DNA of 64,000 nt, taken from Trypanosoma brucei. Its lineage: Eukaryota. The position numbers and the translations under genes are program-made. Positions 34,257-64,000 of the stretch are shown here, one piece after another; position 1 is the first letter of the stretch; each line of letters opens with the position of its first letter. The stretch spans positions 832,001-896,000 of the forward strand of contig CP000066.1 of NCBI GenBank assembly GCA_000002445.1, in the 5' to 3' direction. The notes beneath the pieces are model-generated. The model saw nothing but the letters and a program-made list of their open reading frames with translations. It was not told the origin of the DNA and made no database searches.

Positions 34257-34615
34257 ACAACCCCCAATGTTGCGATTTCACGACATGAAAGTAAAGTTTA
34301 TGTGTAGAGTGTGTACGCGGGTATATCGGCATGTGATAGTCAGACGAAAGTTCCTGTGACAAATAATTGCCCTTACGTAAGGGGTTTTGATACAGAACCT
34401 GTTAAGGCCTTCACACCCGTGGTTTGTGGATTTGGAACACCAAAATTTTAAACACATTTCTTCACGTCATTAACATAAAAATAAAAATGGGGTGGGGGAG
34501 CGGGCGTCTCAGCGAAAACGACGGCCGCGGTAAGCAAAGTCGAAACAAAATACCCGCGTGAAAGTGGTATATGATAAGCAGAAATAGGAACTAACACGCG
34601 CAAAAACAAAACTAC

Positions 34616-38467: not shown

Positions 38468-39163
38468 TACCATTTGTGTGATAGCACCATAGCACCCTGA
38501 AGACCACAAAAGCACTTCAAAGCCACACAATAAGAAACTCAACAGTGCAGTTATAGCATTCATACGTGAGAGTCAAGGAAATGAAAAGAAATATAAAAAC
38601 AAAAAAGCATGTTCTGCGTCTCATTTTAATACGATGCTCTAACGAGCCGTGTCAAAGTGGGCATAGTCCCGTTCAGGAAGAAGGCTAACTGAATCAATGT
38701 TGTAAGTCCTTTCCGCACCAACCCTGGCATGTTCGTGTCCTTTTATGTAATCTTTAGTGGGAAAATAATACAATACCTCGTTGACAACCTTTGTTTTACT
38801 TCCCCCTCCCCCCCCCCCCATGTGCTTCTCGCCGAGCAACTTCAGCCGACGCAAAGCTCACTGAAATATGTCCCTTCAAACACTAACAGTAATCGTCGGA
38901 AACGGTTGTTTGTAGAACGGTAGATAGTAAAGCGCAAAACGTTGTACACCCACTGAGGGGGGCGGCACAATTTTAAATATTTTTTTAATTGTGTGGAAGT
39001 ATTCGATGTTTCTCCCATGCTAATGACACTGTGATTGTTCCTGTCTCCCTTTATGCTTCGTCTTCTCTCCCCTACCCTGACATCAACTGCTTATTGGCCT
39101 CAGCGAAACTTGATATTATTTATAAATAACCCCAATATCTACTTCGCTAACTGGAGTTGGCAC

Positions 39164-40525
39164 TTAGGAGGTCACCATGTCCCTGGTGTAATGGTTAAAA
39201 AACGCCTCAAGAAGGTTCTTCAGATGAAGCAAATCGGCGGTCCCACACATCTCGCGAATGCTGTGCATGCTTAGCATCGGATTGCCCAAATCGACTGTTT
39301 GGATACCTGATAACGAGGACAAGATCGGCCCTATGGTTGAACCACACGGGGAATCATTCTTCACGCAAAATTCCTGAATGGGCACAGAAGCTCTTTTAGC
39401 GATTGCTTTTACAATCGCAGCGGTGACGCCATTTGTGGCATAGCGCATGTTTGCATTGTATTTGATGACTGGTCCCCGGTGAATAAGGGGGCGATGTTTT
39501 TCTTCGTGTTTATCCTGATAGTTAGGATGAACCGCGTGAGCGCCATCAACTGACATTAAGAATGAGTTAGCCACGAGCTGTGCACGAAGTCCTCCAGATG
39601 CAGAAATGTATTCAATCACATCTGGAACGAGTGAACCCCCGGCACCTTGAGAAGTAGATGATCCCACTTCTTCGTTATCGAAAAGGCACACCATTCTTAT
39701 CATGTTTTCTTCTTCCAGAGTTTTGTCTGATTCGAGAAGGGCTTTCACTCCGCAAAAACATGAAATAAGGTTATCAAGACGGGGTGCATATATGAATTCA
39801 TCGTTTGCCCCACCAACAACAGCATCCTGTGTATCGACTACGCTCAAGTCATAGTCGACTATCTCACTGGGCCGGCAACCAAGGGACTCCGCAAGCAAAA
39901 TAAGCAGCTGAGAGTTATGATGCTCGCTCACATCTCCATTTGGTGTGTGTGAGAGAGTAGTTGCTATTACAGGAACCAGATGTTTTTCTTTGTTTGGTCC
40001 GAACGCATTTCGCTCTTCCACTGACTGAAGGTGAATGGCGAGGGTTGGAATTCGCATAATCGGTTTATTCACCTTGACCAACCGTTTTACCAACTTAGAG
40101 GAGGAAATTATAACCCTTCCTGCAACAGTTAAATCACGATCAAACCAAGTGTGCCACAAGCCACCCCCGTAGCATTGTACCGCAACACCCTGGTAGTCAC
40201 TCCTCCCGGCCAGTGTTCGTGGTTTCAGTGCAAGATTCGGTGAATCGGTGTGAGCTCCAACAATTTTGAGTCCGTTTTCAGCTACGAACCGCCCTCCAAC
40301 GGAGAAGGCGACGAGACTACTGTCGTTTCTGGTTATAAAATACCTGTATCCATTCGTTAACTTAGGCCACGTTTCACCTTCCTTTAGTCTTTGGTAACCA
40401 GCGTTCGACAACCAAGATGAAAGTACCTCTACCGCATGAAAGGGGGTACATGCCTCATTTATAAAGTTGACAAACTCCTTCGCAAGCTGGGTTACAGGCG
40501 GTGAGTCAAGTGGCAACATAGACAA
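39164..40525 (-). CDS. aspartyl aminopeptidase (peptidase family M18)
   Basis: A 453-aa protein with the M18 signature GAHTDSPNLALKP, metal-binding His/Asp/Glu blocks, and a conserved C-terminal HSIRE region. Confidence 0.88.
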   Translation of the reverse strand: MSMLPLDSPPVTQLAKEFVNFINEACTPFHAVEVLSSWLSNAGYQRLKEGETWPKLTNGYRYFITRNDSSLVAFSVGGRFVAENGLKIVGAHTDSPNLALKPRTLAGRSDYQGVAVQCYGGGLWHTWFDRDLTVAGRVIISSSKLVKRLVKVNKPIMRIPTLAIHLQSVEERNAFGPNKEKHLVPVIATTLSHTPNGDVSEHHNSQLLILLAESLGCRPSEIVDYDLSVVDTQDAVVGGANDEFIYAPRLDNLISCFCGVKALLESDKTLEEENMIRMVCLFDNEEVGSSTSQGAGGSLVPDVIEYISASGGLRAQLVANSFLMSVDGAHAVHPNYQDKHEEKHRPLIHRGPVIKYNANMRYATNGVTAAIVKAIAKRASVPIQEFCVKNDSPCGSTIGPILSSLSGIQTVDLGNPMLSMHSIREMCGTADLLHLKNLLEAFFNHYTRDMVTS

Positions 40526-41005
40526 ATCGTGTGAGACTTACTAATATATATATATATATAAATATACCACGGGAAAGGAATGGTAATGAAAAATGCTCGA
40601 TACACACTGTATCAGCAACTGCAGTAAGTCATCACAAAAAGGCGTTTCATATCCTTTTATTTAACCTTTGACAGAAACCGGGATGGAACCGGTTACCTAG
40701 TTTCGTACGGTGAATTCCAACTCAGATTGAGGAACCGTAAAAGAAAATGAAGGAACTTCACGACGACCAAAAAAGTCGTTTGTTACATGAGTAAGCGGAA
40801 TGATATCAACACCACTTCCCTTATATTTTTCAAAAATGATAATAATAACAATAATAATAATAACTGGAAATTTTCTTGTGGGCTCAAGATAACGAGCTCC
40901 ATTACCACCGCCTAAACCATTAACATCAATGTGGAGAGAAGTAAATAGGCATGTTCCGCTGCTCTCCACCATCTTACTGTCAGGACTTTTTTTTACGCAG
41001 CGAGT

Positions 41006-41248
41006 TCACTCGGATCGATCCAACAACAAGTCCGTAAGAAAAAAAAAATAACTAACATTGGCAATACCCCAGTAGCACCACATAAACTCCTCGATAGGAG
41101 AATAAAAATGGGGACAAAACACAGAATCACGATACATATTCATAGATATATATTCAATACCTGTAGCAACCGAGCAATAAAATTGTGCTCGTACTGGGCG
41201 GTTCACAGGCTGCTTGTAGTGTCTAATCAAATTGTCGGTCGTAGCCAT
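41006..41248 (-). CDS. small hypothetical ORF (80 aa) at the head of the gene cluster
   Basis: It runs in the same orientation as the cluster, from MATTDNLIRHYKQ... to a stop codon. No domain was recognised, and it could be spurious. Confidence 0.2.
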   Translation of the reverse strand: MATTDNLIRHYKQPVNRPVRAQFYCSVATGIEYISMNMYRDSVFCPHFYSPIEEFMWCYWGIANVSYFFFLTDLLLDRSE

Positions 41249-43658: not shown

Positions 43659-44957
43659 TTATTCTCTCTCCCTCTTTCTGTTTCTGTTGCTTGTTGACTG
43701 CATACCTCCTCTGTCTCTGAGGGTGTCTGGACTATTCCTGCGTCCGGTGCTTTTCCTGCTAGCTCCACCCTCGGCAATAAGGGGGGAAGTTGCAGAAGGG
43801 AGAGTGGGTTGTATGACTGTTACATTAGGGGAGGACTTCACCCGCGGCCGGCTCCGTTCAACCGCAATGAGAAATTGCGCCAGCCTTTTGGAGAAACATA
43901 TATCCTGCACACACACCCCCTCTACCGCAAACCTGACACGTAACTCCTTCAAACCGGGACAGCTCATCAAGTGCAGCGACGTTTCTTCGCAGTCGCCGCG
44001 TTGGCTGGTAACAGCGCGCTCTACTTTCATACCGCGCATCTTCTTTTGATGTAGGGTGAGGCCAGTTTTGCTAGCACACTGCCTTCCGCATGTCGGGCAC
44101 ACCAACATGGATGTGTTTGTATGCGGGGAATCAGTGGCACACAATTTTGTGCTTTTGCTGCATTTAAGCTCGACTCCCTCACCTTTGTGGAAAGCCTTGC
44201 AGTGTCGGATGAGGGAGTCCCTGCAACTGAGCACTTTTTGGCACACACCACACTGCACCTCGCCTTTCCCCGGGACGTCAACGTTTCCCTCACGGGTACG
44301 CTTACGAGGGAATTGCACCACCACCACGGTACCGTCCTCCGTCACTATGCTCTTATGTTTGAATTTCTTGCGTAGTGACAGGGAAGAGCGTGTACCGAAG
44401 CTCGCCTCGCACAGGTCACATTGAAACGGCAGCTCCTGTGTATCCTGAGGGGCTGGCGCTGCTGGGACGCTACCATCTCCTTGCAATGAGTCCTCGTTCT
44501 CTCGCCCCCTTTTCACGCGGTAACTACCGCTGCCTATGCCATGTATTGTTCTAAGGTGGTGTAATAGTCGGCCTGGCACTGCGAATTTGGAGGCACAGAG
44601 GGTACAATGAAGCACCTGCGGTCTCATCGGGACTCGTGTGCTCGGTGGTAGAGGAACGATCGCCACCACTGGAGGGGGCTCCGGGGGGATATCCACTATA
44701 GGTGTTGCATCGCCGTATTTGATCCTCCGGAGGGCATCAGCTCGCACAAAGCCGTGTGTGTTTACCATGTGCGTTACAGCACTCGAGCGGCATTGGTATG
44801 TGGCATCACATACCGTACATTTGGTTGGTTCGGAGGTTCTCTGAACAGTGCGTGTCGCAACAGGTGGGGCTGTTTGTATTGTTGGTTCTATCGCTGTATG
44901 TTGCGGGTTACACCATCGGCACTGCGGGGGCACACTCGGGTTGATCTTCCGCAACAT
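43659..44957 (-). pseudogene. retroelement ORF fragment: C2H2 zinc-finger (nucleic-acid chaperone-like) C-terminal domain
   Basis: At least five Cx2Cx12Hx3-5H fingers (for example CTVCDATYQCRSSAVTHMVNTHG and CTLCASKFAVPGRLLHHLRTIHG), as in the C-terminus of L1Tc/ingi ORFs. Confidence 0.65.
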
Positions 44958-45107
44958 CCATCCATAGTGCCTTGAAGACCCAACCCGAAAGCGTGCCAGT
45001 GCCGTTTCTTCTTCCCTCGTCAGTTCTTCTTTATGTTTTGTTGGAAAGTGGTTGCCCGTGATACCAAACCTATGAGTGTTCTCATGGACTTCTTCCTACC
45101 TAAGCAC

Positions 45108-47639
45108 TCACTTCGCATAAGCAATGATGTCGGGGATCCATGTGTCTCGCAACTGTGGTAAATCTGCAGCCTTTTTGGCCATTTCATCGCAAACCTCATT
45201 CCGTTTCACGCCACAATGGCCAAACACAAATTGCAGTCGGATACGTATCTTCCTTCTCTGAACTTGAAGCAGAAGCCTCCATAGTCGTCTCAGAATTGGG
45301 TCCGTTACGGCTAGGGGGCCTGTCTGCAGTGCTGTTAACATTGACAGCGAGTCAGAGAAGATGGACAACCTGCTCGGTGTGCTTCTGTATGCCGGAAGCC
45401 ATTTCAGCAGCCGTTGCAGTCCTATCTCTAATGCTACGCATTCCGCTCTGTAACTGCATGAGAGTTCCCCTGCTCCGGTTTTGGGTGCGCAAATCAGCGT
45501 GTTGTTTCTATAGAGCAGGGCAGCTGCCTCGGACTTCTCACCGAGGGACACGGATCCATCAGTCCACAATTCGTAGTGCTCTCGCCGCGGTGGCTCCTTC
45601 CCCCTCCGTGCAAAATGCCGTTCAATCCACTTTTCGGAAGCCTCCCTTTTGACATCGTCAGGGTCATCAGCGCACACAGGCTTTATCTGCGTGTGAAATA
45701 GCGATCGGCAGCTGTGGCGGAGCGTCGATGTCTCTAGTGGGTGCTCGCGTGGCTCAATGCGGAGGTGGGGGTAGGACCGCATGATGCGGGAATGTAGGGC
45801 TCTGACTGGGTGTTTGCTGTGGTATACTTCCTCAGCACTGCGGCGCAAACATCCGCCTCGTGACTCACACATCAGCATGAATTTCATGCCGCGCACAAGA
45901 GTGGTCGTCTTGAGTGGCAGGAGGTTTGCTTCCAGCAGAGAGTCCTCTTTGCGCGTCCCATGCGGTATGCCAGCTATGATGCGACTGGCTTTGTGTTGTG
46001 CTGCTGCAAGGAGGTCGCGACTTCGTTCCGAAGCGTCCCAGTACCATACCTCAATGCCATACATGGTGTGTGCCTGTACGAGTGCTAGATAAAAAGCTCT
46101 CAGTAGTTGTCGTCTTGGCCCCCATGTAGAAGCTGAGATGGCTGCTATCTGCAGTAGTCGGAAGTCCATCTTGCGTCTCGTTTCGGCCGCATGTGTTGCC
46201 ATCCCTTGCAGACACTGGAATGTTACTCCTAGAAGCTTCGGTGTCCTGTCAGCTCCTATTCTTTCGCCGTCCAGTTGTAATGTAAGGGGGTGGCGCTCTA
46301 TACACCCGAAGAGTGTGCACTTTGTTTTCGCTACGTTGACAGACATGAAGTACTCTTTTGACCACTGTAACACTACGTTGAGGCCGCATTGCAGTGTGTG
46401 GTTGATGACATCCCTCTCTCTGTATCTCGCAAGTAGCGTCAGGTCGTCTGCAAAGAATCCGTTCTGCAGTAACGGCAGTCCTGCAAGGCGCTGGCTCAAC
46501 GAGTTCATGACAATAATGAACATGATTGGGCCAAGGACAGTTCCTTGTGGCACTCCTCGTTCAAATGTTCTGCTGCTGGAAAGCTTCTCCTTGAATCTCA
46601 CTCTGCCAGTTCGGTTACTCAGAAATGATACGCACCACTTCACAATGTGGGGTGATACCTTCATTATGTGCATTTCCCTCGCAATTTTGTCGTGGTCTGC
46701 TGTATCGAATGCCTTCTCGTAGTCAACGAATACAGCACCCGTACGAGATTGGTGCGTGGGGCGGCAGAGGGCAGCGCGGACGTGCAGGAGTTGTTCGAGC
46801 GTTGAGCATCCGGGGCGAAAGCCTGATTGCTGCGGCGTCAGCTGGGACTCAACAGTGTCTCTAAGCCTCGCGGCAATTATGCGCTCCATGACTTTGCAGA
46901 GACAGCTCGTGAGCGTCACAGGCCTGTAAGAATCGAGGTCCTCCGCCTTTTTTCCGGCCTTCAGGATGGGGATGATAACACCAGTCTTCCATGCAGGCGG
47001 CACGACTCCCGTTCGTAGGCTCTCATTGAATAGCCTCAGAACAACATTCAGCGCTGTTCTGCCGAGATGTTGCAGTGCCTCGTTGTATAAGCAATCAGGT
47101 CCGGCAGCGGATCCACTCGGTAGCAGTTTGATCGATCTCCGTAGTTCAGCCATCGTGATGGGACTGAACTCACTCGCTGTCGTCTTTATGGGTGCCGGTG
47201 GGTGTGAGTCGGGGTGTCTTCTTGCGCGGGACGAGTACAGTTTAATGAACCTCTCAGCTTGACGGTAGTCCGTGATGGCCGCGTTATCAACCAGCGCCGC
47301 CGGTGTGGTTAGTGGTCGTGGCGCATATACCTTCTTGACAATGTGCCAACTGCAGCGGTCTGACACCGCAAGTCTGGAGCATAGCGTGCTCCATCTCTTC
47401 TTTGTGGTACGGTCCAGGATCTGCTTACGCGTGGCTACCAACTTTTCCCTTCGGTGGGAGGGTCCACATCCAGCGATCTCTTCATCGACTTTCGCGAGCT
47501 CAGGTGTCCAATGTGGTGGCGTTGCTCTGCAGCCACGGGGGACGGAGACCTTCGTCGCAATGCGGATGGCGGAGCTCAATTTAATGTTCCAGGGTGTTGA
47601 CGTTCTTCTCTCTACCAATTTTCCTGCAGAGCTCGTCAA
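45108..47639 (-). pseudogene. retroelement ORF fragment: reverse transcriptase plus RNase H
   Basis: RT blocks (PDCLYNEAL, FVDYEKAFDTADH, GVPQGTVLGP, FADDLTLL) are followed by an RNase H-like LWTDGS...ECVALEIGLQ. It ends in TGA (45108-45110), in the same frame as the downstream zinc-finger ORF. Confidence 0.8.
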
Positions 47640-47904
47640 CCTTGAGACGGAAATTCCTCCAGTTAGCTTTTAGCCATGCGTACATGGGCTTTCGAAGCCG
47701 CGGTCGGCTCAGTGCATCTGTGCCGTCTCCAACGATAACGTCGAAAAATATGTGATGGTGATCGCTATTGGGAGAATACAGCGATGCCCACGTGTACACT
47801 GTACAATTCCTTGACAGTTTCACATCAGGGGTGGACTCCCCGTGGTGGCGCGTGTACCTGGTGCACTCACCAGTGTTGCAGACCAGAAACTGGTTGTCAA
47901 TGCA

Positions 47905-48657
47905 TCACTGTGTGAGGGTTTCACCCTTGGTATTTGGTGGGCTCGCGCGATCCCATGCCAACGTGTGTGCGTTAGCGTCTGCACCGATGAGCTGGGAACC
48001 GTCAGTCGTCAGAACCGTATATAGGTCAGTTGCCGTGAAGGTGTGTTTTGGTGGGATGTATGCCGACGTGACGGTCAGCGCCGTTTCACGTGCAAGGTGA
48101 ATTGTTGCATGCACTTGTTCAATGCGACCAACAACGGCCATACCGGTCTCGACTGGTAGGTCCTCCCTCACTAGTGTTGATACACCACCTCCTTTGCAGT
48201 TACGAGCTATTCCGTGATGTTTGTAGCCAGCAACGCTAAAGCAAGCCGCCTCTCCAGGCGTCATCCTTGTCTCGCTCAACAGACAAAAGGCGATCCGCTC
48301 ATCAACAAGGGTTTTGTGGAGTGCTAATCTCTTTCCTTGAGATAGCCCGGCGCAGTTCCACTTCATCCCGCGCAACGACGGGCCGGGATTCTCTTCCACA
48401 TCACCGGACAGCAGCATCTTAGTGCGGATGATACTGCTGATGGCACGCTGGCACGTGCCCAGGGACCGACAAATGAAAAACGGTGTCCCAGCAAGACGCT
48501 GCTGATCACTGTGCTGTATGATGCCGTAGCCGGAGCACAGCATTGTTCCCCATGAAAGGAACGCTGCTAGCTCTTGGCTTCCCCCGATGATACGGGGCAC
48601 TGGACCCTGGCACCACGTTGAGGTGGCCGGCGTCGCCCCTGAGCAGACTCTTGACAA
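47905..48657 (-). pseudogene. retroelement ORF fragment: 2A-like peptide plus apurinic/apyrimidinic endonuclease domain
   Basis: SSIIRTKMLLSGDVEENPGP is followed by the exonuclease-III/APE fold (LLSETRM..., ...GGGVSTLVRED...). It lies in frame 0 and ends at a stop, and the next domain is in frame 2, so a frameshift separates them. Confidence 0.7.
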
Positions 48658-51600
48658 TCACAAACTCGCTGTTGCCGCTCATGGTATTGGAAGCAGGCCC
48701 ATCCCACCGTGGCAGACCAACACCCAAATAAGCTACGGGTGCTTCTCCTACAAATACGGGAGGGAAAGCGTATACCACATTGAAGTTTGTATTTAGTTAC
48801 TGATGTGGAATGGAATGGGATGTTTGATGGTATGGTGGAAAGGGTGACTGACATGCCGCAGTTGCCTGACCCGAAGCTCCAGGACATTGTAACCTACATG
48901 GGACCGATATTGCTGTCAGCGGAAAAGGGAGTGAAGAAGAGGTGGCAGTGGCTCGTTCCCACCCCGTTGCCTCTCGGCATTGCGAATGTATGCTGCGAAA
49001 TATCAACACGCGGACACCGCTGCAGTGCCTGAAATGAAAAGTACAAAGCTCGGCTTACAAAGCGTCGAACTCCGACAACCCATGCGACCACTGCGACAGC
49101 GAAAAACAGTATGACCCACACTGGTGATGAAATGAGGTGGCGTGAGCACAAAGCCCATGGCTAGTGCCAGTCGAGTGCTGTAACGCATATGGTAAACAAA
49201 CACGAATATGTCCGCGCGGATGCGCCGTGAATATCGAGGTGCGGCGACACACCGTGCCTTTCATGTATTTTCCGGGATCCTCTTCCAACTGAGAATTCAC
49301 AGCTAGGAGTGCAGTGTGCGCCGGAATGGGTTTAAGCAAGGAGACTGCTCGGGGAGACGCCGCAGAGCGCATCACGGTGTGTGTGTGTGTTTGGGGGAGG
49401 AGGAGGAGCTTGAGCTCAAGAGGTGGACGCACAAATGAACGACAGACACCAAGCAAATGCACATTAACACCAATGTTTCCAACATGTGTGTCACAGCGCC
49501 GCAATCAAACCTGACCTTGTACTTTATAGAAAGACACGCGTGGCTTCCACGCGACACCTGAAATCACAACCCAATGCAACGATTTCGATTGAAAGTTACC
49601 ATTATTATTGAGCTGCCAATGGGTGAAAGATTTTCATGGACAGTGTGTTGTGGAAGAGTGATCATACGGGTCTAAAGGACTTTGGAGATAATTTGCATAG
49701 TTTCTCCTCGCGGTGGAACGGTACCACCAGGCGCCGCACCCATTTTCCACTTGTATCTTCTCTTCTTGACACCATAGAAGGATCTGACAACACAAACAGC
49801 GCACGCAGCGATCATAAGCAAAGAGCTACCCCCACATACGGGAAAGAAGAGGAGAAAGAGGGATAAAGGGAATCGATAACATCAAAAAAAATTTATGTCA
49901 GAAAGTTTAGCGACTTCGCATCTTTAAAATGAGCACACTGTGGGGAAGTGTGCTGTTCCGTCTCCTGTATACTGCGCTATGACGACTCTGAAGGAGTAAA
50001 AGAAAACATCGGAATGGAGGGAGGCATACATTATACATAACGAAGAGACTCAACCACATTCATCAACAACAAAAGCAATTCCAATATACACTAGTCAACA
50101 ACCACCTCAGCGGTGAAGTTAACTCCAACGCGAGGACAGGAAAATATCCCCTAAAAAGAGTCCTGCACGACTTGGTTCGTGATGGATTGGGAAAGGCTCA
50201 CATTGTACCTTACTTTATGGTAGACAAGACCGTATGCCTTTCCCAAGCCTAACGGTGACGAACGAGAGGACATTGTCTGATACCATAACGAAAGCTAACG
50301 GGCAGAAGGTGTCACTTACGTATTTGGTAGCGCGTACCATTTAGTCACATTTGGCATCATAAGCAGCTATAGCGCATTACTCTTCTTCAGGCAACCGAAG
50401 TTATGGTATCATTGTGTCATCGTCACTGAGCAGGAAATGTTTTCACAGATGGTATAAGGAAAAGAGTATGTGCTTCTTCTACATAAATTTCTACGAGAAG
50501 ATAGAGTTTAAGGCTGCGCTTGCATCGATGTATTTCTCAACGTTTCAAAGGAAAGAAGCAGTTGTGAGATGTTGTGGAGCAAGTGAAAGAGATTGAGATA
50601 AATATGGATGATATTGGATGATCGGATTCATATGGTGGGGCCTTTACTGCCTTTGTTGAATGGAACTTCCTACAAGCAATGCTGTGATGTGGAGGAACCA
50701 CGATATGAACTTACTGATTTAGTTGTAACAATTGTATGACGGTTCATGAAAGCATCAGAGTATCTGGAAAACGAGTGATGGGAATGTAAGACATGAGACA
50801 CACAGCAAAAAATGCAATTCTAATCCAAGTGAGTGGTGAGGTGATGCACAGACATGTTCGTTGTGTTACATTGCTCTGGAGAAGAGACTGAAAGCTTCGG
50901 TGTATGGAGTCCATATCATTGGGAGGAATCAACCGTACAAGACATTTTATCACGTACTTCAGTGAGATGTTACACAAGGTATTAGAGAATGTTACTGTGA
51001 ATAGTAGCCTTAATGGCTGACTTCACCGCAAACGACGTGGGTGGAGCTTACGAAATAAAACGCCTTCAGCGTGGTAAGGAGCTATCTTGACACAAATATG
51101 TGTTATTACAAGGAAAGATATCGCCATATGCGTATTATTTTCCTTATGTTGATGTTTTGTGCGTGGCATACAATCAAAAATGTAACGAAGGTTGGATACC
51201 CTTACACAACCCATCAAAGACAATTTTCCATCTTGCTGATACGTTTTGTTTGTGTGTGGGGGGGGGGGGGAATTACAGTCAAATGTAATGTCGATCCACA
51301 ATTGTTTTGATTCATGCAGTAACAGAATATATCGACATTGTGTTTCACCTGACTCAGTCATTATGTCTATAAGGGGAATAAAGGAGGCACTTGATCCTAG
51401 GGGGACTTTTGAAAGACAATCTGGAATGGGGAAATCATCTTTATGCGTCATGTGTACTGCACAGGAAGTGTTTGAGATTAAGCGTAAACTTCATTCAAAT
51501 GAAGAGAACACGAATCCGAAATGTGTGGGTATTATGAAAGCACGATCACCCCCCACACCCACTGAAGATGGGCAAATCGATGAGAAACTGTGGGGTAATG

Positions 51601-52170
51601 TCAACCACGATAAATGGTGAAGTTGGATACCGAGGTCATCAGTCGTTCTATCAATACTCTACACGATATCAATGGCACTAAAAAAACAACTCATGGCTCC
51701 GAAAAGGAAAAAAAAACAGTAGCTGATGTTATTGATCTGTTTCCTTATACTGTAACTTCGCTGCTGAATGCTTCCCTGGACGTGCGCTTCTTCGTGCGTG
51801 TAAACACGAAGTTATATCAGCTTTCAGAATGAGGACATGCATTGGTTTTCACGATGAGCGTCTTACACGACATTACAATATGTTATGCCACATCTACTTG
51901 AGGTTCAGCATACCTTCACAACATTTTCCCGCTATTGTATTTTTTTTTTTCGATATCATTCTGATTAGGGAAATTGGTTTTAGAATTGGCAGGCAAAAAA
52001 TATTGGGCAAATGGGTGTCACTTGTATGAGACATATCCTGTTTTGATTTTATGATAAAATATTATTTATGTTATCCTTCATTTTATTAAATATAAGTATG
52101 CTTGGTAGAAGTGTGCAAATAGTGCTGCATACGTGTGGGATTCGTCCTAGTGTGGTAGTTATATTATTAC

Positions 52171-52280
52171 NNNNNNNNNNNNNNNNNNNNNNNNNNNNNN
52201 NNNNNNNNNNNNNNNNNNNNNNNNNNNNNNNNNNNNNNNNNNNNNNNNNNNNNNNNNNNNNNNNNNNNNNNNNNNNNNNN
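52171..52280. other. assembly gap (110 N)
   Basis: A run of n characters at the proximal edge of the satellite array. The array length is therefore a minimum. Confidence 0.99.
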
Positions 52281-55200
52281 TATCGCACAAAACCCTGTTA
52301 CAGTGTGATTGGGTAACGCCCTTCCACTGATCACATGCATTGGTGGCACATCATGGCCCATCTTTCATGGTTATCGCCCCTACGGCGCATAATGGCGTGT
52401 TATCGCACAAAACCCTGTTACAGTGTGATTGGGTAACGCCCTTCCACTGATCACATGCATTGGTGGCACATCATGGCCCATCTTTCATGGTTATCGCCCC
52501 TACGGCGCATAATGGTGTGTTATCGCACAAAACCCTGTTACAATGCGATTGGGTAACGCCCTTCCACTGATCACATGCATTGGTGGCACATCATGGCCCA
52601 TGTTTCATGGTTATCGCCCCTACGGCGCATAATGGTGTGTTATCGCACAAAACCCTGTTACAATGCGATTGGGTAACGCCCTTCCACTGATCACATGCAT
52701 TGGTGGCACATCATGGCCCATATTTCATGGTTATCGCCCCTACGGCGCATAATGGCGTGTTATCGCACAAAACCCTGTTACAGTGTGATTGGGTAACGCC
52801 CTTCCACTGATCACATGCATTGGTGGCACATCATGGCCCATCTTTCATGGTTATCGCCCCTACGGCGCATAATGGCGTGTTATCGCACAAAACCCTGTTA
52901 CAGTGTGATTGGGTAACGCCCTTCCACTGATCACATGCATTGGTGGCACATCATGGCCCATCTTTCATGGTTATCGCCCCTACGGCGCATAATGGCGTGT
53001 TATCGCACAAAACCCTGTTACAGTGTGATTGGGTAACGCCCTTCCACTGATTACATGCATTGGTGGCACATCATGGCCCATCTTTCATGGTTATCGCCCC
53101 TACGGCGCATAATGGCGTGTTATCGCACAAAACCCTGTTACAGTGTGATTGGGTAACGCCCTTCCACTGATTACATGCATTGGTGGCACATCATGGCCCA
53201 TGTTTCATGGTTATCGCCCCTACGGCGCATAATGGCGTGTTATCGCACAAAACCCTGTTACAGTGTGATTGGGTAACGCCCTTCCACTGATCACATGCAT
53301 TGGTGGCACATCATGGCCCATCTTTCATGGTTATCGCCCCTACGGCGCATAATGGCGTGTTATCGCACAAAACCCTGTTACAATGCGATTGGGTAACGCC
53401 CTTCCACTGATCACATGCATTGGTGGCACATCATGGCCCATCTTTCATGGTTATCGCCCCTACGGCGCATAATGGCGTGTTATCGCACAAAACCCTGTTA
53501 CAGTGTGATTGGGTAACGCCCTTCCACTGATTACATGCATTGGTGGCACATCATGGCCCATGTTTCATGGTTATCGCCCCTACGGCGCATAATGGCGTGT
53601 TATCGCACAAAACCCTGTTACAGTGTGATTGGGTAACGCCCTTCCACTGATCACATGCATTGGTGGCACATCATGGCCCATCTTTCATGGTTATCGCCCC
53701 TACGGCGCATAATGGTGAGTTATCGCACAAAACCCTGTTACAGTGTGATTGGGTAACGCCCTTCCACTGATCACATGCATTGGTGGCACATCATGGCCCA
53801 TCTTTCATGGTTATCGCCCCTACGGCGCATAATGGTGAGTTATCGCACAAAACCCTGTTACAGTGTGATTGGGTAACGCCCTTCCACTGATCACATGCAT
53901 TGGTGGCACATCATGGCCCATCTTTCATGGTTATCGCCCCTACGGCGCATAATGGCGTGTTATCGCACAAAACCCTGTTACAGTGTGATTGGGTAACGCC
54001 CTTCCACTGATTACATGCATTGGTGGCACATCATGGCCCATGTTTCATGGTTATCGCCCCTACGGCGCATAATGGCGTGTTATCGCACAAAACCCTGTTA
54101 CAGTGTGATTGGGTAACGCCCTTCCACTGATCACATGCATTGGTGGCACATCATGGCCCATCTTTCATGGTTATCGCCCCTACGGCGCATAATGGTGTGT
54201 TATCGCACAAAACCCTGTTACAATGCGATTGGGTAACGCCCTTCCACTGATCACATGCATTGGTGGCACATCATGGCCCATCTTTCATGGTTATCGCCCC
54301 TACGGCGCATAATGGCGTGTTATCGCACAAAACCCTGTTACAGTGTGATTGGGTAACGCCCTTCCACTGATCACATGCATTGGTGGCACATCATGGCCCA
54401 TCTTTCATGGTTATCGCCCCTACGGCGCATAATGGTGTGTTATCGCACAAAACCCTGTTACAATGCGATTGGGTAACGCCCTTCCACTGATCACATGCAT
54501 TGGTGGCACATCATGGCCCATCTTTCATGGTTATCGCCCCTACGGCGCATAATGGTGTGTTATCGCACAAAACCCTGTTACAGTGTGATTGGGTAACGCC
54601 CTTCCACTGATCACATGCATTGGTGGCACATCATGGCCCATCTTTCATGGTTATCGCCCCTACGGCGCATAATGGCGTGTTATCGCACAAAACCCTGTTA
54701 CAGTGTGATTGGGTAACGCCCTTCCACTGATCACATGCATTGGTGGCACATCATGGCCCATCTTTCATGGTTATCGCCCCTACGGCGCATAATGGTGTGT
54801 TATCGCACAAAACCCTGTTACAATGCGATTGGGTAACGCCCTTCCACTGATCACATGCATTGGTGGCACATCATGGCCCATGTTTCATGGTTATCGCCCC
54901 TACGGCGCATAATGGTGTGTTATCGCACAAAACCCTGTTACAATGCGATTGGGTAACGCCCTTCCACTGATCACATGCATTGGTGGCACATCATGGCCCA
55001 TATTTCATGGTTATCGCCCCTACGGCGCATAATGGCGTGTTATCGCACAAAACCCTGTTACAATGCGATTGGGTAACGCCCTTCCACTGATCACATGCAT
55101 TGGTGGCACATCATGGCCCATCTTTCATGGTTATCGCCCCTACGGCGCATAATGGCGTGTTATCGCACAAAACCCTGTTACAGTGTGATTGGGTAACGCC

Positions 55201-58200
55201 CTTCCACTGATCACATGCATTGGTGGCACATCATGGCCCATCTTTCATGGTTATCGCCCCTACGGCGCATAATGGTGTGTTATCGCACAAAACCCTGTTA
55301 CAGTGTGATTGGGTAACGCCCTTCCACTGATCACATGCATTGGTGGCACATCATGGCCCATCTTTCATGGTTATCGCCCCTACGGCGCATAATGGCGTGT
55401 TATCGCACAAAACCCTGTTACAGTGTGATTGGGTAACGCCCTTCCACTGATCACATGCATTGGTGGCACATCATGGCCCATCTTTCATGGTTATCGCCCC
55501 TACGGCGCATAATGGTGTGTTATCGCACAAAACCCTGTTACAATGCGATTGGGTAACGCCCTTCCACTGATCACATGCATTGGTGGCACATCATGGCCCA
55601 TGTTTCATGGTTATCGCCCCTACGGCGCATAATGGTGTGTTATCGCACAAAACCCTGTTACAATGCGATTGGGTAACGCCCTTCCACTGATCACATGCAT
55701 TGGTGGCACATCATGGCCCATATTTCATGGTTATCGCCCCTACGGCGCATAATGGCGTGTTATCGCACAAAACCCTGTTACAGTGTGATTGGGTAACGCC
55801 CTTCCACTGATCACATGCATTGGTGGCACATCATGGCCCATCTTTCATGGTTATCGCCCCTACGGCGCATAATGGTGAGTTATCGCACAAAACCCTGTTA
55901 CAGTGTGATTGGGTAACGCCCTTCCACTGATCACATGCATTGGTGGCACATCATGGCCCATCTTTCATGGTTATCGCCCCTACGGCGCATAATGGTGAGT
56001 TATCGCACAAAACCCTGTTACAGTGTGATTGGGTAACGCCCTTCCACTGATCACATGCATTGGTGGCACATCATGGCCCATCTTTCATGGTTATCGCCCC
56101 TACGGCGCATAATGGTGAGTTATCGCACAAAACCCTGTTACAGTGTGATTGGGTAACGCCCTTCCACTGATCACATGCATTGGTGGCACATCATGGCCCA
56201 TCTTTCATGGTTATCGCCCCTACGGCGCATAATGGTGAGTTATCGCACAAAACCCTGTTACAGTGTGATTGGGTAACGCCCTTCCACTGATTACATGCAT
56301 TGGTGGCACATCATGGCCCATCTTTCATGGTTATCGCCCCTACGGCGCATAATGGCGTGTTATCGCACAAAACCCTGTTACAGTGTGATTGGGTAACGCC
56401 CTTCCACTGATTACATGCATTGGTGGCACATCATGGCCCATGTTTCATGGTTATCGCCCCTACGGCGCATAATGGCGTGTTATCGCACAAAACCCTGTTA
56501 CAGTGTGATTGGGTAACGCCCTTCCACTGATCACATGCATTGGTGGCACATCATGGCCCATCTTTCATGGTTATCGCCCCTACGGCGCATAATGGTGAGT
56601 TATCGCACAAAACCCTGTTACAGTGTGATTGGGTAACGCCCTTCCACTGATCACATGCATTGGTGGCACATCATGGCCCATCTTTCATGGTTATCGCCCC
56701 TACGGCGCATAATGGTGTGTTATCGCACAAAACCCTGTTACAATGCGATTGGGTAACGCCCTTCCACTGATCACATGCATTGGTGGCACATCATGGCCCA
56801 TCTTTCATGGTTATCGCCCCTACGGCGCATAATGGCGTGTTATCGCACAAAACCCTGTTACAGTGTGATTGGGTAACGCCCTTCCACTGATCACATGCAT
56901 TGGTGGCACATCATGGCCCATCTTTCATGGTTATCGCCCCTACGGCGCATAATGGCGTGTTATCGCACAAAACCCTGTTACAGTGTGATTGGGTAACGCC
57001 CTTCCACTGATCACATGCATTGGTGGCACATCATGGCCCATCTTTCATGGTTATCGCCCCTACGGCGCATAATGGCGTGTTATCGCACAAAACCCTGTTA
57101 CAATGCGATTGGGTAACGCCCTTCCACTGATCACATGCATTGGTGGCACATCATGGCCCATCTTTCATGGTTATCGCCCCTACGGCGCATAATGGCGTGT
57201 TATCGCACAAAACCCTGTTACAGTGTGATTGGGTAACGCCCTTCCACTGATCACATGCATTGGTGGCACATCATGGCCCATCTTTCATGGTTATCGCCCC
57301 TACGGCGCATAATGGTGTGTTATCGCACAAAACCCTGTTACAATGCGATTGGGTAACGCCCTTCCACTGATCACATGCATTGGTGGCACATCATGGCCCA
57401 TATTTCATGGTTATCGCCCCTACGGCGCATAATGGCGTGTTATCGCACAAAACCCTGTTACAGTGTGATTGGGTAACGCCCTTCCACTGATCACATGCAT
57501 TGGTGGCACATCATGGCCCATCTTTCATGGTTATCGCCCCTACGGCGCATAATGGTGAGTTATCGCACAAAACCCTGTTACAGTGTGATTGGGTAACGCC
57601 CTTCCACTGATCACATGCATTGGTGGCACATCATGGCCCATCTTTCATGGTTATCGCCCCTACGGCGCATAATGGTGAGTTATCGCACAAAACCCTGTTA
57701 CAGTGTGATTGGGTAACGCCCTTCCACTGATTACATGCATTGGTGGCACATCATGGCCCATCTTTCATGGTTATCGCCCCTACGGCGCATAATGGCGTGT
57801 TATCGCACAAAACCCTGTTACAGTGTGATTGGGTAACGCCCTTCCACTGATTACATGCATTGGTGGCACATCATGGCCCATGTTTCATGGTTATCGCCCC
57901 TACGGCGCATAATGGCGTGTTATCGCACAAAACCCTGTTACAGTGTGATTGGGTAACGCCCTTCCACTGATCACATGCATTGGTGGCACATCATGGCCCA
58001 TCTTTCATGGTTATCGCCCCTACGGCGCATAATGGTGTGTTATCGCACAAAACCCTGTTACAATGCGATTGGGTAACGCCCTTCCACTGATCACATGCAT
58101 TGGTGGCACATCATGGCCCATCTTTCATGGTTATCGCCCCTACGGCGCATAATGGCGTGTTATCGCACAAAACCCTGTTACAGTGTGATTGGGTAACGCC

Positions 58201-59990
58201 CTTCCACTGATCACATGCATTGGTGGCACATCATGGCCCATCTTTCATGGTTATCGCCCCTACGGCGCATAATGGTGTGTTATCGCACAAAACCCTGTTA
58301 CAATGCGATTGGGTAACGCCCTTCCACTGATCACATGCATTGGTGGCACATCATGGCCCATCTTTCATGGTTATCGCCCCTACGGCGCATAATGGCGTGT
58401 TATCGCACAAAACCCTGTTACAGTGTGATTGGGTAACGCCCTTCCACTGATCACATGCATTGGTGGCACATCATGGCCCATCTTTCATGGTTATCGCCCC
58501 TACGGCGCATAATGGTGTGTTATCGCACAAAACCCTGTTACAATGCGATTGGGTAACGCCCTTCCACTGATCACATGCATTGGTGGCACATCATGGCCCA
58601 TGTTTCATGGTTATCGCCCCTACGGCGCATAATGGTGTGTTATCGCACAAAACCCTGTTACAATGCGATTGGGTAACGCCCTTCCACTGATCACATGCAT
58701 TGGTGGCACATCATGGCCCATATTTCATGGTTATCGCCCCTACGGCGCATAATGGCGTGTTATCGCACAAAACCCTGTTACAGTGTGATTGGGTAACGCC
58801 CTTCCACTGATCACATGCATTGGTGGCACATCATGGCCCATCTTTCATGGTTATCGCCCCTACGGCGCATAATGGTGAGTTATCGCACAAAACCCTGTTA
58901 CAGTGTGATTGGGTAACGCCCTTCCACTGATCACATGCATTGGTGGCACATCATGGCCCATCTTTCATGGTTATCGCCCCTACGGCGCATAATGGTGAGT
59001 TATCGCACAAAACCCTGTTACAGTGTGATTGGGTAACGCCCTTCCACTGATCACATGCATTGGTGGCACATCATGGCCCATCTTTCATGGTTATCGCCCC
59101 TACGGCGCATAATGGTGAGTTATCGCACAAAACCCTGTTACAGTGTGATTGGGTAACGCCCTTCCACTGATTACATGCATTGGTGGCACATCATGGCCCA
59201 TCTTTCATGGTTATCGCCCCTACGGCGCATAATGGCGTGTTATCGCACAAAACCCTGTTACAGTGTGATTGGGTAACGCCCTTCCACTGATTACATGCAT
59301 TGGTGGCACATCATGGCCCATGTTTCATGGTTATCGCCCCTACGGCGCATAATGGCGTGTTATCGCACAAAACCCTGTTACAGTGTGATTGGGTAACGCC
59401 CTTCCACTGATCACATGCATTGGTGGCACATCATGGCCCATCTTTCATGGTTATCGCCCCTACGGCGCATAATGGTGAGTTATCGCACAAAACCCTGTTA
59501 CAGTGTGATTGGGTAACGCCCTTCCACTGATCACATGCATTGGTGGCACATCATGGCCCATCTTTCATGGTTATCGCCCCTACGGCGCATAATGGTGAGT
59601 TATCGCACAAAACCCTGTTACAGTGTGATTGGGTAACGCCCTTCCACTGGTTACATGCATTGGTGGCACATCATGGCCCATCTTTCATGGTTATCGCCCC
59701 TACGGCGCATAATGGCGTGTTATCGCACAAAACCCTGTTACAGTGTGATTGGGTAACGCCCTTCCACTGATTACATGCATTGGTGGCACATCATGGCCCA
59801 TGTTTCATGGTTATCGCCCCTACGGCGCATAATGGCGTGTTATCGCACAAAACCCTGTTACAGTGTGATTGGGTAACGCCCTTCCACTGATCACATGCAT
59901 TGGTGGCACATCATGGCCCATGTTTCATGGTTATCGCCCCTACGGCGCATAATGGTGTGTTATCGCACAAAACCCTGTTACAATGCGATT
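52281..59990. repeat. 120-bp tandem satellite array (about 64 copies, about 51% GC); candidate centromere-associated repeat
   Basis: The unit tacggcgcataatggcgtgttatcgcacaaaaccctgttacagtgtgattgggtaacgcccttccactgatcacatgcattggtggcacatcatggcccatctttcatggttatcgcccc repeats with an exact 120-bp period. Four polymorphic sites define variant units arranged in recurring blocks. Confidence 0.95.
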
Positions 59991-62900
59991 ATTTCTTGTG
60001 TGTTTTGTAACATCGGTGGGAATTCGTGATTGGTTGAGTTGATGGTTGCTGTTTCTGTGTTTCTTGCCTTAAATGTTTTTCCTCTCCATCACTCTGTGTC
60101 TTTTCTTTTATTAGACTTTTCACCTTATGTTTCTCCGCTACTTTTCCGCTTACATTGTCACATAACCTCGTTCCATTTAGAGGATTTTCAGCTGTTTGCT
60201 CAAGAAGTGTTGCGCCAGTGTATCTGTTTTTGGTGTTGTCGTCTGTGTTTCCATTCTTACCGGAGACAATAGCGTAACCTCCTTTATATTCCTATTTTCT
60301 TTGGGTCACGCTCGAGCCATTCTTTACCCCGTGCACCTGTGTTTGTTGGCAAGCTATTCAATCGTTCTTATTCTGCGAGTAGTGTGTGGTGAAAGTACAA
60401 AAAAAATGACTTTATCAGCATTCATGCACATCCCTACTTAGAATATGATTCTATTGCTGTCGCTAATTCAGTTCAATTTCGAGTTCCAGTTTAATACCCA
60501 GCACCCTCCGTATGTGGCCACGCCCAGCTGTGAGGACCAGTTACGCCTTCGAGGCTTTATTGCGGCCTTCCCAGAGTTGGCTCTCCTCAGTTTCCCTTCC
60601 AAATGCCCCTGGACGAGGCAGCCTGCTTCGCCTGGCTGTGTGTATGGAGCTAACTCCCGACTGCTCCAGTTCATATCGGCACCGGTCATCAATGCGCTAA
60701 CTGTTGGGCGGAGCGAATCCGGCGCTCGCCTTGTGGCCGCTTCCGCTTTTTAGGGATATGTTGGCAGAAATGTGACTTGTAGCCCCTGCCCGGCATCGAT
60801 TTAGCCGATGCTCTTTCATACCTCCCTGTACATCGCGGGGCCCAAAGCATACCGTCGCTACCCGTTTCAAGTATTGGTTCTGTCTTCATTTTCAGGGCCG
60901 TGCAATTTCTATGGTCTTCTGTTAATATTTCATTTTTGTATTCCGCTTCTTTGGGCACACGTAATCCTCGCAAAATTCAGAAATTGACGTCGTAACTGTG
61001 AAGTTGCTTTGCCAAAGCGAATCTTTTCGGCTGTGGGAGCTCCCTAGCTCCCCATTGCGATCCATGTGGGATTGTGTCCGGGTTATTTTTGTAGAGCGTG
61101 CTTGATGACTGTGCTGGCCTACAGACCACCGAAAAGGTGCCCTCACGATTGCAGAAGGGTAAGGTGATGTTCCTTTTCATCCCCGAGAACCGATGACTTT
61201 GATGCCTGCTCCCCCCGGAGGCCGACAATCATCTGCCTGCCCCAATCACTAAGGAACAGAATTCATGAACACGCTCGGTTTTCCCTCTCATCTGGAATAT
61301 GGGCCCTGACATTACTATGGAGTGTGCAACGTAATAAGGGGTGAGTGGTAGCTCAGCGACTTGACTGCTTGGAAGGGCAGAAACGCATACGCCAGTAAAG
61401 GTTTCGACCATGGACGGTCACCGCCAACTTCATTTCCGAAGCGGCAAAAGCAATCAAACTGGGGGAAAGCCATTTTCTTGAATCGTAGCGACTTTTCTAA
61501 ACTTAGAGATGATACTTGATTCAGTTGAGCACAGTCATGTCGTCCGTGCATCGGAGCAGCTGAAAGCAAGTTCTTTCCCAATGCAGTGGACAAAATGTTT
61601 AACGCCCAACGGAGCGGGAAGGGTCAGAAGCAATACGCTTTCTCAGAGCTCCAGTTGGACGTGTGGGATCCATAGGGGATCGGTGCTACGCCACCGACTC
61701 TCAACTGTAACGATGGAGCGGCAGGGTAAACTACTCGAAGGAACGTGGAGGAACCTACACCACCTTCGGCGCGGACAAATAACACCCAAAAAGACGAACT
61801 GAGAAAGTGAAAAAATGAGAGCTGCGCTGCAACGGAGAAGGTGGTTTTCGCGATAGTTGCTCAGAAGGTGCTTTATGGAAGTGGTGGAAAAAAAAAACGG
61901 GCCGCACGCCACTTGGATTGGGCGCTTGGAATCCACCAAGCCTCAGGCTGGCAAGAAAAAAGTTAAATGGTGCCAAGACCGAAAAGCTCCGAGCCCCTCT
62001 GCAGCCGTTGAAAGAGGTGCTGAAGCATGTTCAACAAACGGCAAATCAGAAAGGACGAAATTAAGGAGGCCCAAAGCCGCAGTGTTACCTGAACGGGGCT
62101 CCCCAGAAGGAAGCGTTTACAGCCCTCCACTCTGGGCCCACACCAGCAAAGATGAACTACGGTATCGCTTTTAGGTGGTTCTGGGCCCCCACTTGAAGCG
62201 GTGAGAGGGGAGGATGGAAGGCATGCGAACGCAGTCGGCATGCACGATTGCTTGGGTCTCATCGGACGCAAACAAACAAGACATGCTCAAAAAAACACGA
62301 CTGATATTTGTTTGAAAAGCGGCAAACAAGAGGGTGATGGAACGCAACCCGCTGTACAATGCTAAAAGGGGACGCTTTTCAGACAAAGTCGATGATTTCC
62401 TCAAGACCATTCAACACATGAATGGCTGAATTCAGTGGAGGCATGGTGCTCCGAGATCAAAAATCAGGGTGTACTCTATAAATGAGGCTCATTGAATGCT
62501 GGCCCCTGAATGTGCACAAATGTGTCTCCCCCTATGGGAGCGTGAGAACGGGTGCGCCGCGTGGAGAGAACTGGGTCCACACAGTGAAAAAAATGGAAAG
62601 ATGGATCGGGGAGGTTAAACACTTCTCGGGGCTCAGGGGAGATAATCTCAGACAAGGAGTATGGAAAAGTAAGGAAATAAAGAGGCACCGAAAGGTTAGC
62701 ACGCAGCCACCAGACGGGGTGTGTTGACAAGCCCGAAGGTCGCCGGAGCTTTCCTTCTTGCCGAAACGGTCCGCGCGTTCAAAGCGCGTCCCCTCATCGA
62801 CTATCGGTCGCTGCTTTTGGCACTGCAGAACAGGCTTACTGCGCTCGTGGATAAAGCCGCGCCGCTGATATAAGCGCTCCACCCGCGTGCGGACGCCGCG

Positions 62901-64000
62901 GGGCCCTCGTGCATTCACAGTTTATTTACAGTCGCTGAGGTGTGGCCGTGGCTGGGCTTTCAGGCGTGGAGGCCCAAGCCACCGCCAACTTTCAAGTGTG
63001 TGTGTGTGTATGGGGACGGGGGGGGGGGGGGTGGCATAAATACCCGAAGTCACTGGACTTGCCAAACGGGCCGTCAGAGTATTCAGGATAAAGGCACGTA
63101 GACAAATCAGAAACCACTATGAATTCACCCCGTAAGATGCATCGCCCAGCCCAGGACAGGCTAGTGAACTCGCGCCATGTTGGACGGGGAAACAGGCTTC
63201 ATGTGGGCGGGTCTTTTGAACCGGTGGGCTAGCACAAGAGGAAGAAAGGTGGCGACGAGCTCCTAGCAGGGGCCGGTAAGATTCAAAATAGCGACCCACC
63301 CCTAACCGTGTACGAATGCGATTGGATTCCTGCATAACCTTGCTGCATGATGGGGTTTCAACCCAGGGAAGTGGTGCGAGGCACACGCGTCGCGTGCGAA
63401 ATCTCTCTTTCGGCGAGACGTCGTATTAACTGAAATAGGACACGGAACTCGGGGTTGCGCCAGAACTCGCGGCTGATGCTTTGTCTTGCCCGCCAAAGCT
63501 GCATGTATGCTTTGTATGCCGCGCATCCTTTTTTTGTTTATCGCGCTCGGTGGGTCACATGCCATCAACTTGCTGCTACCGAAGTCAGAGCGAACCATAT
63601 TCACTTCCTGGAGGATTACTGTATGTTATGTCCGAACTAGTTATGCGTGACCAGTTGCAAACGTTCAGCTTTTAGTCCTCGGTCTTCCTTAATTGCGAAA
63701 ACAGTTTACTTGAGAGTGAAAGGCTTCTGCCTCTTTTTTTTTTTTTTTTGAGCCAAACGTAGAAGAGCATAGTGGAGTTTACAATTTTCATTCAGAGGAG
63801 TGGGCAGCTTTTTGTGTAGTCTATTCTCCTTTATAGGGGTGTTCCTCTCGAATGAAGAAAGTACATGTTGGAAGAGAATGAGGGGTTTCTTAATTTCTTG
63901 GAGGAATTGTGCAAGGTTCTTGGTGAACACTGTCTTCTGCATATTTTCGCCCTCAAGCCCGAAGTGACTGCGGAGCACTTTAGGCTTGAGCGCACGAGTA

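Follow-up and report, generated by a model that had tools for sequence, protein, structure and literature searches.

Short recurring blocks of variant units in the assembled part of the 120-bp centromere-associated repeat of Trypanosoma brucei chromosome 3

A tandem array of 120-bp units on chromosome 3 of Trypanosoma brucei raises the question of whether its slightly different units follow one another in any order and, if so, whether that order is a regular higher-order repeat, a local by-product of recombination or a product of the assembly. We analysed a window of 64,000 nucleotides (GCA_000002445.1, contig CP000066.1, positions 832,001 to 896,000), in which the array has the following surroundings (window coordinates).

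39164..40519, minus strand: M18 aspartyl aminopeptidase gene, product identical to XP_843934.1 (T. b. brucei TREU927)
43659..48657, minus strand: degenerate ingi/DIRE-type non-LTR retroelement, three ORFs
52171..52280, no strand: assembly gap of 110 N, at which the array 'ends' on the left
52281..59990, no strand: 120-bp satellite array, 64.2 units, 7710 bp, chromosome 3 centromere-associated repeat
59991..64000, no strand: right flank, non-coding in profile and similarity searches

The aminopeptidase gene is presumably locus Tb927.3.3410. The retroelement ORFs encode an endonuclease, a reverse transcriptase with RNase H and a C2H2 zinc finger, and its orthologue in T. b. gambiense DAL972 is a single ORF of 1585 aa. 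All ORFs of at least 200 aa left of the array lie on the minus strand, pointing away from it. The right flank (59991..64000) showed no satellite relics, Pfam domain, Rfam match or similarity to the left flank, no degenerate relic units were found beyond the array, and an Rfam scan of the window for structured RNA or rRNA returned no match, relaxed threshold included.

The array is the known centromere-associated 120-bp repeat of T. brucei TREU927 chromosome 3 (Obado 2007), the 'CEN3' repeat of Obado et al. 2007, Echeverry et al. 2012 and Akiyoshi and Gull 2014. A 120-bp unit with 49% AT has been described for this chromosome only (Obado 2007), and unit length, composition, chromosome, flanking gene, retroelement, a size of 7.8 kb and the gap all agree, with no feature of the present array differing. 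Like CIR147, the repeat of chromosomes 4, 5 and 8-11, it is a centromeric array next to an ingi/DIRE element at a directional gene cluster boundary; by its published description, however, CIR147 has a 147-bp AT-rich unit, and the units of chromosomes 3 and 4 are 53% identical (Obado et al.). Topoisomerase-II cleavage has been mapped to the region of the chromosome 3 array (Obado 2007), while the KKT2/KKT3 ChIP-seq peak of this chromosome adjoins the array instead of lying on it; KKT2 sits on CIR147 arrays but beside this one, probably at about 60.2-61.4 kb in the right flank if its coordinates are transferred to the window. A sequence-only reading had compared the array with active centromeric satellites: the centromeric association is borne out by unit, flanking gene and assembled size, whereas the position of the published peak calls for caution over the word 'active'. 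The published accounts of the chromosome 3 repeat that we consulted give a consensus unit and an array size but not the sequence in which variant units follow one another, Obado et al. report fully sequenced arrays to be without a divergence gradient from centre to edge, and the literature searched yielded no account of a higher-order organisation of centromere repeats in T. brucei.

The units are very uniform. Tandem Repeats Finder describes 52281-59990 as period 120, 64.2 copies, 98% matches and 0% indels; the consensus has 50.8% GC (49.2% AT), the whole array contains neither ambiguous bases nor indels, and its right boundary is sharp and cuts within a unit. Cut in register and without gaps, the units vary in seven columns. 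These comprise all four polymorphic sites that had been read by eye (aatggCGTGt/TGTGt/TGAGt; caGtgTgatt/caAtgCgatt, whose two changes are in complete linkage; tgatCac/tgatTac; tCtttc/tGtttc/tAtttc) and a singleton A>G in unit 61. In the unit phase of that reading, starting at 52382, 63 units can be assigned to 12 types, which carry 0-4 changes relative to the consensus across the 120 positions; two units differ on average at 2.4 positions. The resulting string is

ABCAADEAFEAGGEAHAHIABCFAIABCAGGGJEAGHAAFACAGJEAHAHABCAGGJEAGKEL

Coding potential was rejected because each unit carries a stop codon in all six frames. Protein searches with six-frame translations of the array gave no matches, nor did exact-pattern scans of bacterial and archaeal genome and metagenome collections, as expected; single-strand folding of the unit is unremarkable (z-score -0.74), and a bacterial promoter and terminator scan was disregarded as meaningless for a trypanosome.

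Recurring blocks are evident in the string. The three-unit block that had been placed at four positions is present as three exact copies of BCA (52502, 55502, 58502), the fourth place, 54782, holding a partial copy (BCF) in which the first two units agree and the third differs; successive BC copies are spaced by 19, 6 and 25 units. The four-unit block reported at 56.10, 57.54 and 58.98 kb is exact in all three places (GJEA at 56102, 57542 and 58982), with a spacing of exactly 12 units. Both blocks are halves of one super-block of variable length, (B)CA-G(n)-JEA, of which there are three copies and a fourth, older-looking one. These and the other multi-unit features, none of which has a strand, are as follows.

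52502..53341: super-block copy 1, BCA-A-DEA (string parsed by eye)
55502..56581: super-block copy 2, BCA-GGG-JEA (from the unit string)
57302..58021: super-block copy 3, CA-G-JEA, shortened, including the four-unit block at 57.54 kb
58502..59461: super-block copy 4, BCA-GG-JEA, including the three-unit block at 58.50 kb and the four-unit block at 58.98 kb
54542..55981: tandem duplication of six units, IABCFA then IABCAG (from the unit string and exact repeats)
54062..54541: AHAH cassette, second copy at 57902-58381
59462..59941: edge copy GKEL, a diverged GJEA bearing the sole private substitution of the array

Copy 1 has the layout of the later copies without the TGAGT variant at two middle positions, and copy 2 links the three-unit block at 55.50 kb to the four-unit block at 56.10 kb. 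Copies 2 and 4 form the best local self-alignment of the string (55382-56701 against 58382-59581, with one unit indel), which contains exact repeats of 865 and 839 bp and corresponds to an 11-unit duplicate, units 25-35 matching units 50-59. At lag 6 the longest exact repeat is 596 bp (54467 against 55187), and the AHAH copies lie in an exact repeat of 663 bp at lag 32.

Taken together, we give a probability of about 0.65 to the reading that this is an edge of the TREU927 chromosome 3 array in which out-of-register recombination has produced irregular multi-unit cassettes and the super-block. The most serious competitor, a minority possibility to be kept in mind throughout, is that the 7.7 kb are a collapsed or chimeric rendering of a 75-80 kb array, put together from reads of about 700-900 bp, so that positions, copy numbers and the 11-unit duplicate were made by the assembler and only arrangements within a read are real. 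The assembled 7710 bp begin at the 110-N gap; the reference database gives 7.8 kb (Echeverry Table 1), while restriction mapping of the real array gives 75 and 80 kb, and the region in BAC RPCI93-3K10 had 'not yet been closed' and might span up to 30 kb (Obado 2007). About a tenth of the array is thus assembled, beside a gap, and long-range order and copy numbers are therefore untrustworthy; the longest exact repeats (839-865 bp) have about the length of one Sanger read, so that the assembler may have misplaced blocks, whose positions and counts need not mirror the chromosome.

The orthologous locus of DAL972 points the same way: reached by walking from the aminopeptidase and the retroelement ORF, it is colinear with the window up to exactly 52170 and runs on past the gap position into unrelated AT-rich DNA without a 120-bp unit. 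The T. equiperdum OVI contig with the aminopeptidase stops 2.9 kb upstream of the gene. A reverse-transcriptase homologue in a long-read assembly of T. b. equiperdum sits in a VSG region instead of at this centromere, and among the listed members of the reverse-transcriptase cluster, all 93-97% identical, there was no obvious orthologue. Against an assembly origin, cassettes of two to four units (240-480 bp) fit within one read and hold the statistical signal, a collapsed consensus would be expected to drift to the majority unit and not to yield clean recurring minority haplotypes, and the array is free of indels and ambiguous bases. We infer that any block shorter than a single Sanger read is true to the chromosome.

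Far less probable is that the full array follows a genuinely regular higher-order period, about 12 or 24-25 units in length (1.4 or 3 kb), of which some 2.5 cycles would be visible. A variant-only match statistic, picked after seeing the data, peaks at lag 24 (z=3.8, family-wise p=0.027), followed by lags 25, 19 and 12; the exact 12-unit recurrence of GJEA and the match of units 25-35 with 50-59 fit such a period. In mean divergence by lag, however, none of the lags remains significant after correction (24 and 25 being the best, family-wise p=0.11), the super-block copies lie 15 and 10 units apart and are of unequal length, the left half of the array departs from the period, and the lag-24 signal reflects a single two-copy duplication. 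Dependence between variant sites extends over one to two units and is absent by lag 3. The higher-order periodicity of the sequence-only reading, in the usual sense of a fixed period, is therefore not borne out: the variant structure is short-range and irregular. In an alpha-satellite higher-order repeat, the number of monomers is fixed, the monomers are clearly diverged, and the whole set is repeated head to tail in near-identical copies. The human repeats and the present array are alike in being tandem satellites of a centromere region homogenised in multi-monomer recombination steps; in contrast, no more than 4 of the 120 positions distinguish monomers here, no period is fixed, and blocks are dispersed, not reiterated head to tail. 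By the same slim chance, the full 75-80 kb array might be built on a semi-regular unit (roughly 12 or 24-25 monomers) whose core is (B)CA-G(n)-JEA, and how far this unit is homogenised might relate to the site at the array edge where the unconventional, CENP-A-free kinetochore assembles; if true, no earlier description of a kinetoplastid centromere with a higher-order repeat would exist.

A random order, in which the blocks would be coincidences spotted by eye, can be practically dismissed, its one argument being that the blocks were picked after inspection, since in a permutation test (the very test that had been named as able to overturn the claim of non-random order; unit order shuffled 20,000 times, two unit phases) global statistics independent of these blocks reject it, repeated two-, three- and four-unit words being in excess at p<5e-5 and five-unit words at p=2e-4, with both phases in agreement and the excess persisting when shuffling is confined to windows of 8, 16 or 21 units. 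Repeated three-unit words number 21 against 5.5 expected, 48 of the 63 units lie within a recurring three-unit word (22 expected), and, given one unit, the next has a conditional entropy of 1.47 bits, compared with 2.02 +/- 0.09 after permutation. Successor rules are strict in places: B is followed by C in 4/4 cases, J, K and D by E in 5/5, and E by A in 6/7. Shuffles that preserve neighbour pairs reproduce the three- to five-unit words (p=0.08-0.5) and the best self-alignment (p=0.13), so that statistically the neighbour rules alone are established; with so many null-model parameters for 63 units, this last test has little power.

Out-of-register recombination of several units at a time is most likely the cause of the blocks. 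Neighbouring units are identical in 6 cases where 9.8 would be expected, so that single-unit slippage does not account for the recurring words, and the earlier proposal of multi-unit amplification or unequal exchange stands as the natural explanation of words of unlike units and of the six-unit and 11-unit duplications. The assembled array is the right-hand edge of the chromosome 3 satellite, with units about 98% alike and a few differing sites common to many of them. These sites make up short cassettes in which unlike units stand together (BC, xEA, AH, runs of G), and the cassettes combine into the (B)CA-G(n)-JEA super-block of variable length and irregular spacing. Repeated out-of-register homologous recombination, whether as unequal sister-chromatid exchange, break-induced replication or gene conversion, would copy or delete several units in each event, and new point variants such as TGAGT would arise within one copy and thereafter travel with it.

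The pattern resembles the small local patterns of plant satellites and not the regular ones of the human type. The patterns in maize CentC and in Arabidopsis comprise about 4 monomers, occur about 3 times and stay within about 10 kb; they are irregularly spaced, show no tie to kinetochore position and have been ascribed to unequal crossing over and break-induced replication (PMC13011684). Runs of three variant units likewise recur above chance here, and blocks of 3-4 units occur 3-4 times in the assembled 7.7 kb (BCA three times and once in part, GJEA three times, AHAH twice), with the KKT2 peak beside the array. The comparison spans a different organism, kinetochore type and classification pipeline, and the present sample is 63 units from an incomplete assembly.

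Non-random short recurring blocks are an ordinary feature of satellites, seen here in about a tenth of an array that is itself already known as a published centromere repeat. As it stands, the finding is of limited importance, a block-wise order of variants being usual under recombination-driven homogenisation, and with about 10% of the array in the reference, beside a gap, structural readings call for long-read data. If the cassettes persist in long reads, they would serve as markers of array turnover between homologues and between strains, and they could probe whether the kinetochores of kinetoplastids, which lack CENP-A (PMC3978658), occupy a particular layer of the array.

The order of variant units in the 120-bp satellite is non-random between neighbouring units, and the array is an irregular mosaic rather than a fixed-period higher-order repeat. 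It is the only large array found in the window by Tandem Repeats Finder, and no diverged relic units lie elsewhere in the window. On the right its boundary is abrupt, falling mid-unit at 59990 with unrelated sequence beyond; on the left it directly abuts a run of 110 N (52171-52280), so that its left "end" is a contig end.

52281-59990: 120-bp tandem array, 64.2 copies, 98% matches, no indels (Tandem Repeats Finder)
43659-48657, minus strand: degenerate ingi/DIRE-type retroelement

When the array is cut in register, just seven columns vary across 64 full units, namely the four polymorphic sites scored in the sequence-only reading plus one singleton, with full linkage between two columns (G/A and T/C in caGtgTgatt). 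Every unit carries at least one stop codon in each reading frame of the array, no predicted protein was matched when translations in all frames were used in protein-based searches, and scans for the array pattern in bacterial and archaeal genome and metagenome DNA collections gave zero matches. The single-stranded DNA fold of a unit dimer is unremarkable (z=-0.74). Only one substitution is private to a single unit: an A>G change within ctgAt of unit 61 (59602-59721), three units from the right edge, which abolishes that frame's one stop and creates the array's only ORF of at least 50 aa (59540-59770), for which no homologue was found.

In the phase of the earlier reading (first unit starting at 52382), 12 unit types are distinguished by variant state (A-L, with A the consensus unit), and successive units read ABCAADEAFEAGGEAHAHIABCFAIABCAGGGJEAGHAAFACAGJEAHAHABCAGGJEAGKEL. 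That reading had proposed recurring three-unit and four-unit blocks: the latter (GJEA) has exact copies at 56102, 57542 and 58982, while the former (BCA) is exact at 52502, 55502 and 58502 but not at 54782, where the third unit differs (BCF). Permutation of unit order, the test named there as a possible refutation, shows that the order is non-random: with 20000 shuffles, run in two unit phases with the same outcome, repeated 2-, 3- and 4-unit words are in excess at p<5e-5, and repeated 5-unit words at p=2e-4. The excess persists when shuffling is confined to windows of 8, 16 or 21 units, and regional composition is therefore not its cause. Recurring 3-unit words cover 48 of the 63 units (22 expected). 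Knowing one unit leaves a conditional entropy of 1.47 bits for its successor, where permuted arrays give 2.02 +/- 0.09. The original observation is thus confirmed, and is statistically solid for neighbouring units.

The reach of this structure is short. Variant sites in adjacent units are significantly correlated (lag 1, p<5e-4), as are those two units apart (lag 2, p=0.0025); at lag 3 and beyond the correlation does not exceed the null. Shuffles preserving neighbour pairs recover the counts of 3-5-unit words (p=0.08-0.5) and nearly recover the best local self-alignment (p=0.13), a null that has little power because it carries many parameters for 63 units. Neighbour preferences are strong: B is followed by C in 4/4 cases, J, K and D each by E (5/5), E by A in 6/7 and H by A in 4/5. 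Identical neighbours are not enriched (6 vs 9.8 expected), and the source of the signal is ordered cassettes of unlike units, not runs of single-unit slippage. The term "higher-order periodicity" overreaches: no lag in the mean-divergence profile passes correction (family-wise p=0.11 for the best, lags 24 and 25), and when only matches of non-consensus units are counted, a statistic picked post hoc, lag 24 reaches z=3.8 (family-wise p=0.027), followed in rank by lags 25, 19 and 12. The lag-24 signal mostly reflects a single duplicate, of units 25-35 (55382-56701; ABCAGGGJEAG) and units 50-59 (58382-59581; ABCAGG-JEAG), with exact repeats 865 and 839 bp long inside it.

The two proposed blocks are halves of one super-block of variable length, (B)CA-G(n)-JEA.

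52502-53341: fourth super-block copy, BCAADEA, without the TGAGT variant of the first scored site
54542-55981: six-unit tandem duplication, IABCFA then IABCAG
55502-56581: super-block (B)CA-G(n)-JEA
57302-58021: super-block (B)CA-G(n)-JEA
58502-59461: super-block (B)CA-G(n)-JEA
Array edge: diverged copy, GKEL

The minus-strand gene at 39164-40519 encodes an M18 aspartyl aminopeptidase with exactly the sequence of XP_843934.1 from Trypanosoma brucei brucei TREU927. Obado et al. 2007 described a distinctive chromosome 3 centromeric array, built of 120-bp units with just 49% AT and flanked by Tb927.3.3410 and Tb927.3.3430, and a BAC (RPCI93-3K10), unclosed in this region, holding many 120 bp repeats over up to 30 kb; Echeverry et al. 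2012 gave 7.8 kb for the array in the database and, by long-range restriction mapping, 75 kb for one homologue and 80 kb for the other (PMC3292466). The locus match and the window context thus identify the array as the published chromosome 3 centromere repeat, at about one tenth of its full length.

All ORFs of at least 200 aa left of the retroelement lie on the minus strand; across window 1-48657 GC skew is negative throughout and ORFs of at least 200 aa with recognisable domains are all on the minus strand, which fits a single polycistronic directional gene cluster transcribed away from the array and centromere. Within this region, two tandem kinesin genes (34616-36391 and 36667-38403, minus strand) have nearly identical motor domains (first ~347 aa) and unrelated C-terminal tails, which suggests gene conversion limited to the 5' part. 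A 328-aa ORF (5686-6672, minus strand) includes an acidic repeat of 13 residues, AVDDEGDEEEEEE, encoded by an in-frame tandem repeat of 39 bp (6291-6477) with 4.8 copies at 97% matches. The retroelement is split into three ORFs (250, 843 and 432 aa); its orthologous copy in T. b. gambiense DAL972 is a single 1585-aa ORF, ~96% identical at the protein level.

The sequence-only reading took no account of the array being an unclosed fragment, bounded by the N gap. The orthologous DAL972 region is colinear with window 33658-52170 (98.3%), and colinearity breaks off exactly at 52170, the base preceding the gap. Beyond this point the DAL972 locus sequence (L005) runs on, uninterrupted by N, into unrelated AT-rich DNA of 6.2 kb (L005 1-6247, 28-45% GC). 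This DNA carries RHS-like ORFs on the minus strand at L005 3146-4333, lacks the 120-bp unit and has no counterpart within the window. Either the TREU927 gap conceals other DNA besides satellite units, or DAL972 is misjoined here. Cassettes of 2-4 units are probably real, since 240-480 bp fits inside single Sanger reads, while their placement, how many copies exist and the 1.3-kb duplicate all rest on assembly across exact repeats that appear to be about one read long.

The suggestion of an "active" centromeric satellite calls for qualification: topoisomerase-II cleavage maps to the array region (Obado et al. 2007), but the KKT2/KKT3 ChIP-seq peak of chromosome 3, for which the 120-bp repeat serves as FISH probe, was reported "adjacent to the repetitive sequences" at 892,214-893,422 (PMC3978658). 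With the array end at 891,983 (PMC3292466), the peak would lie at window ~60,221-61,429, by coordinate arithmetic from two papers whose genome versions may differ. In a subsequent paper, the centromeres listed as having KKT2-bound repeats include centromere 3 (PMC12975129). The right flank (59991-64000) is non-coding, with no ORF carrying a domain and no Rfam match, and it does not resemble the left flank; one stretch of this region is said to be identical to chromosome 1 sequence.

The original proposal, that recombination amplified multi-unit blocks of a centromere satellite, is right in spirit, and the cassettes, the duplications and TGAGT fit it. Repeated out-of-register homologous recombination within the array would generate ordered cassettes of unlike units, as well as nested 6-unit and ~11-unit duplications that carry whole-unit indels, and would leave the point variant TGAGT marking a subset of super-block copies; unequal homologous recombination has been invoked for centromeric arrays generally (Echeverry et al.). 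Human-type regular higher-order repeats are no match, as fixed period, diverged monomers and head-to-tail reiteration all failed here. The closest match in kind is offered by maize and Arabidopsis satellites, where small patterns of ~4 monomers occur ~3 times, mostly within ~10 kb, with no link to kinetochore position, and are attributed to break-induced replication and unequal crossing over (PMC13011684). The repeat itself has been described before, and variant order of this kind is an ordinary phenomenon; our literature search found no paper on variant order in the chromosome 3 array, and this order is, pending long-read confirmation, a small addition to knowledge of the trypanosome centromere repeat.
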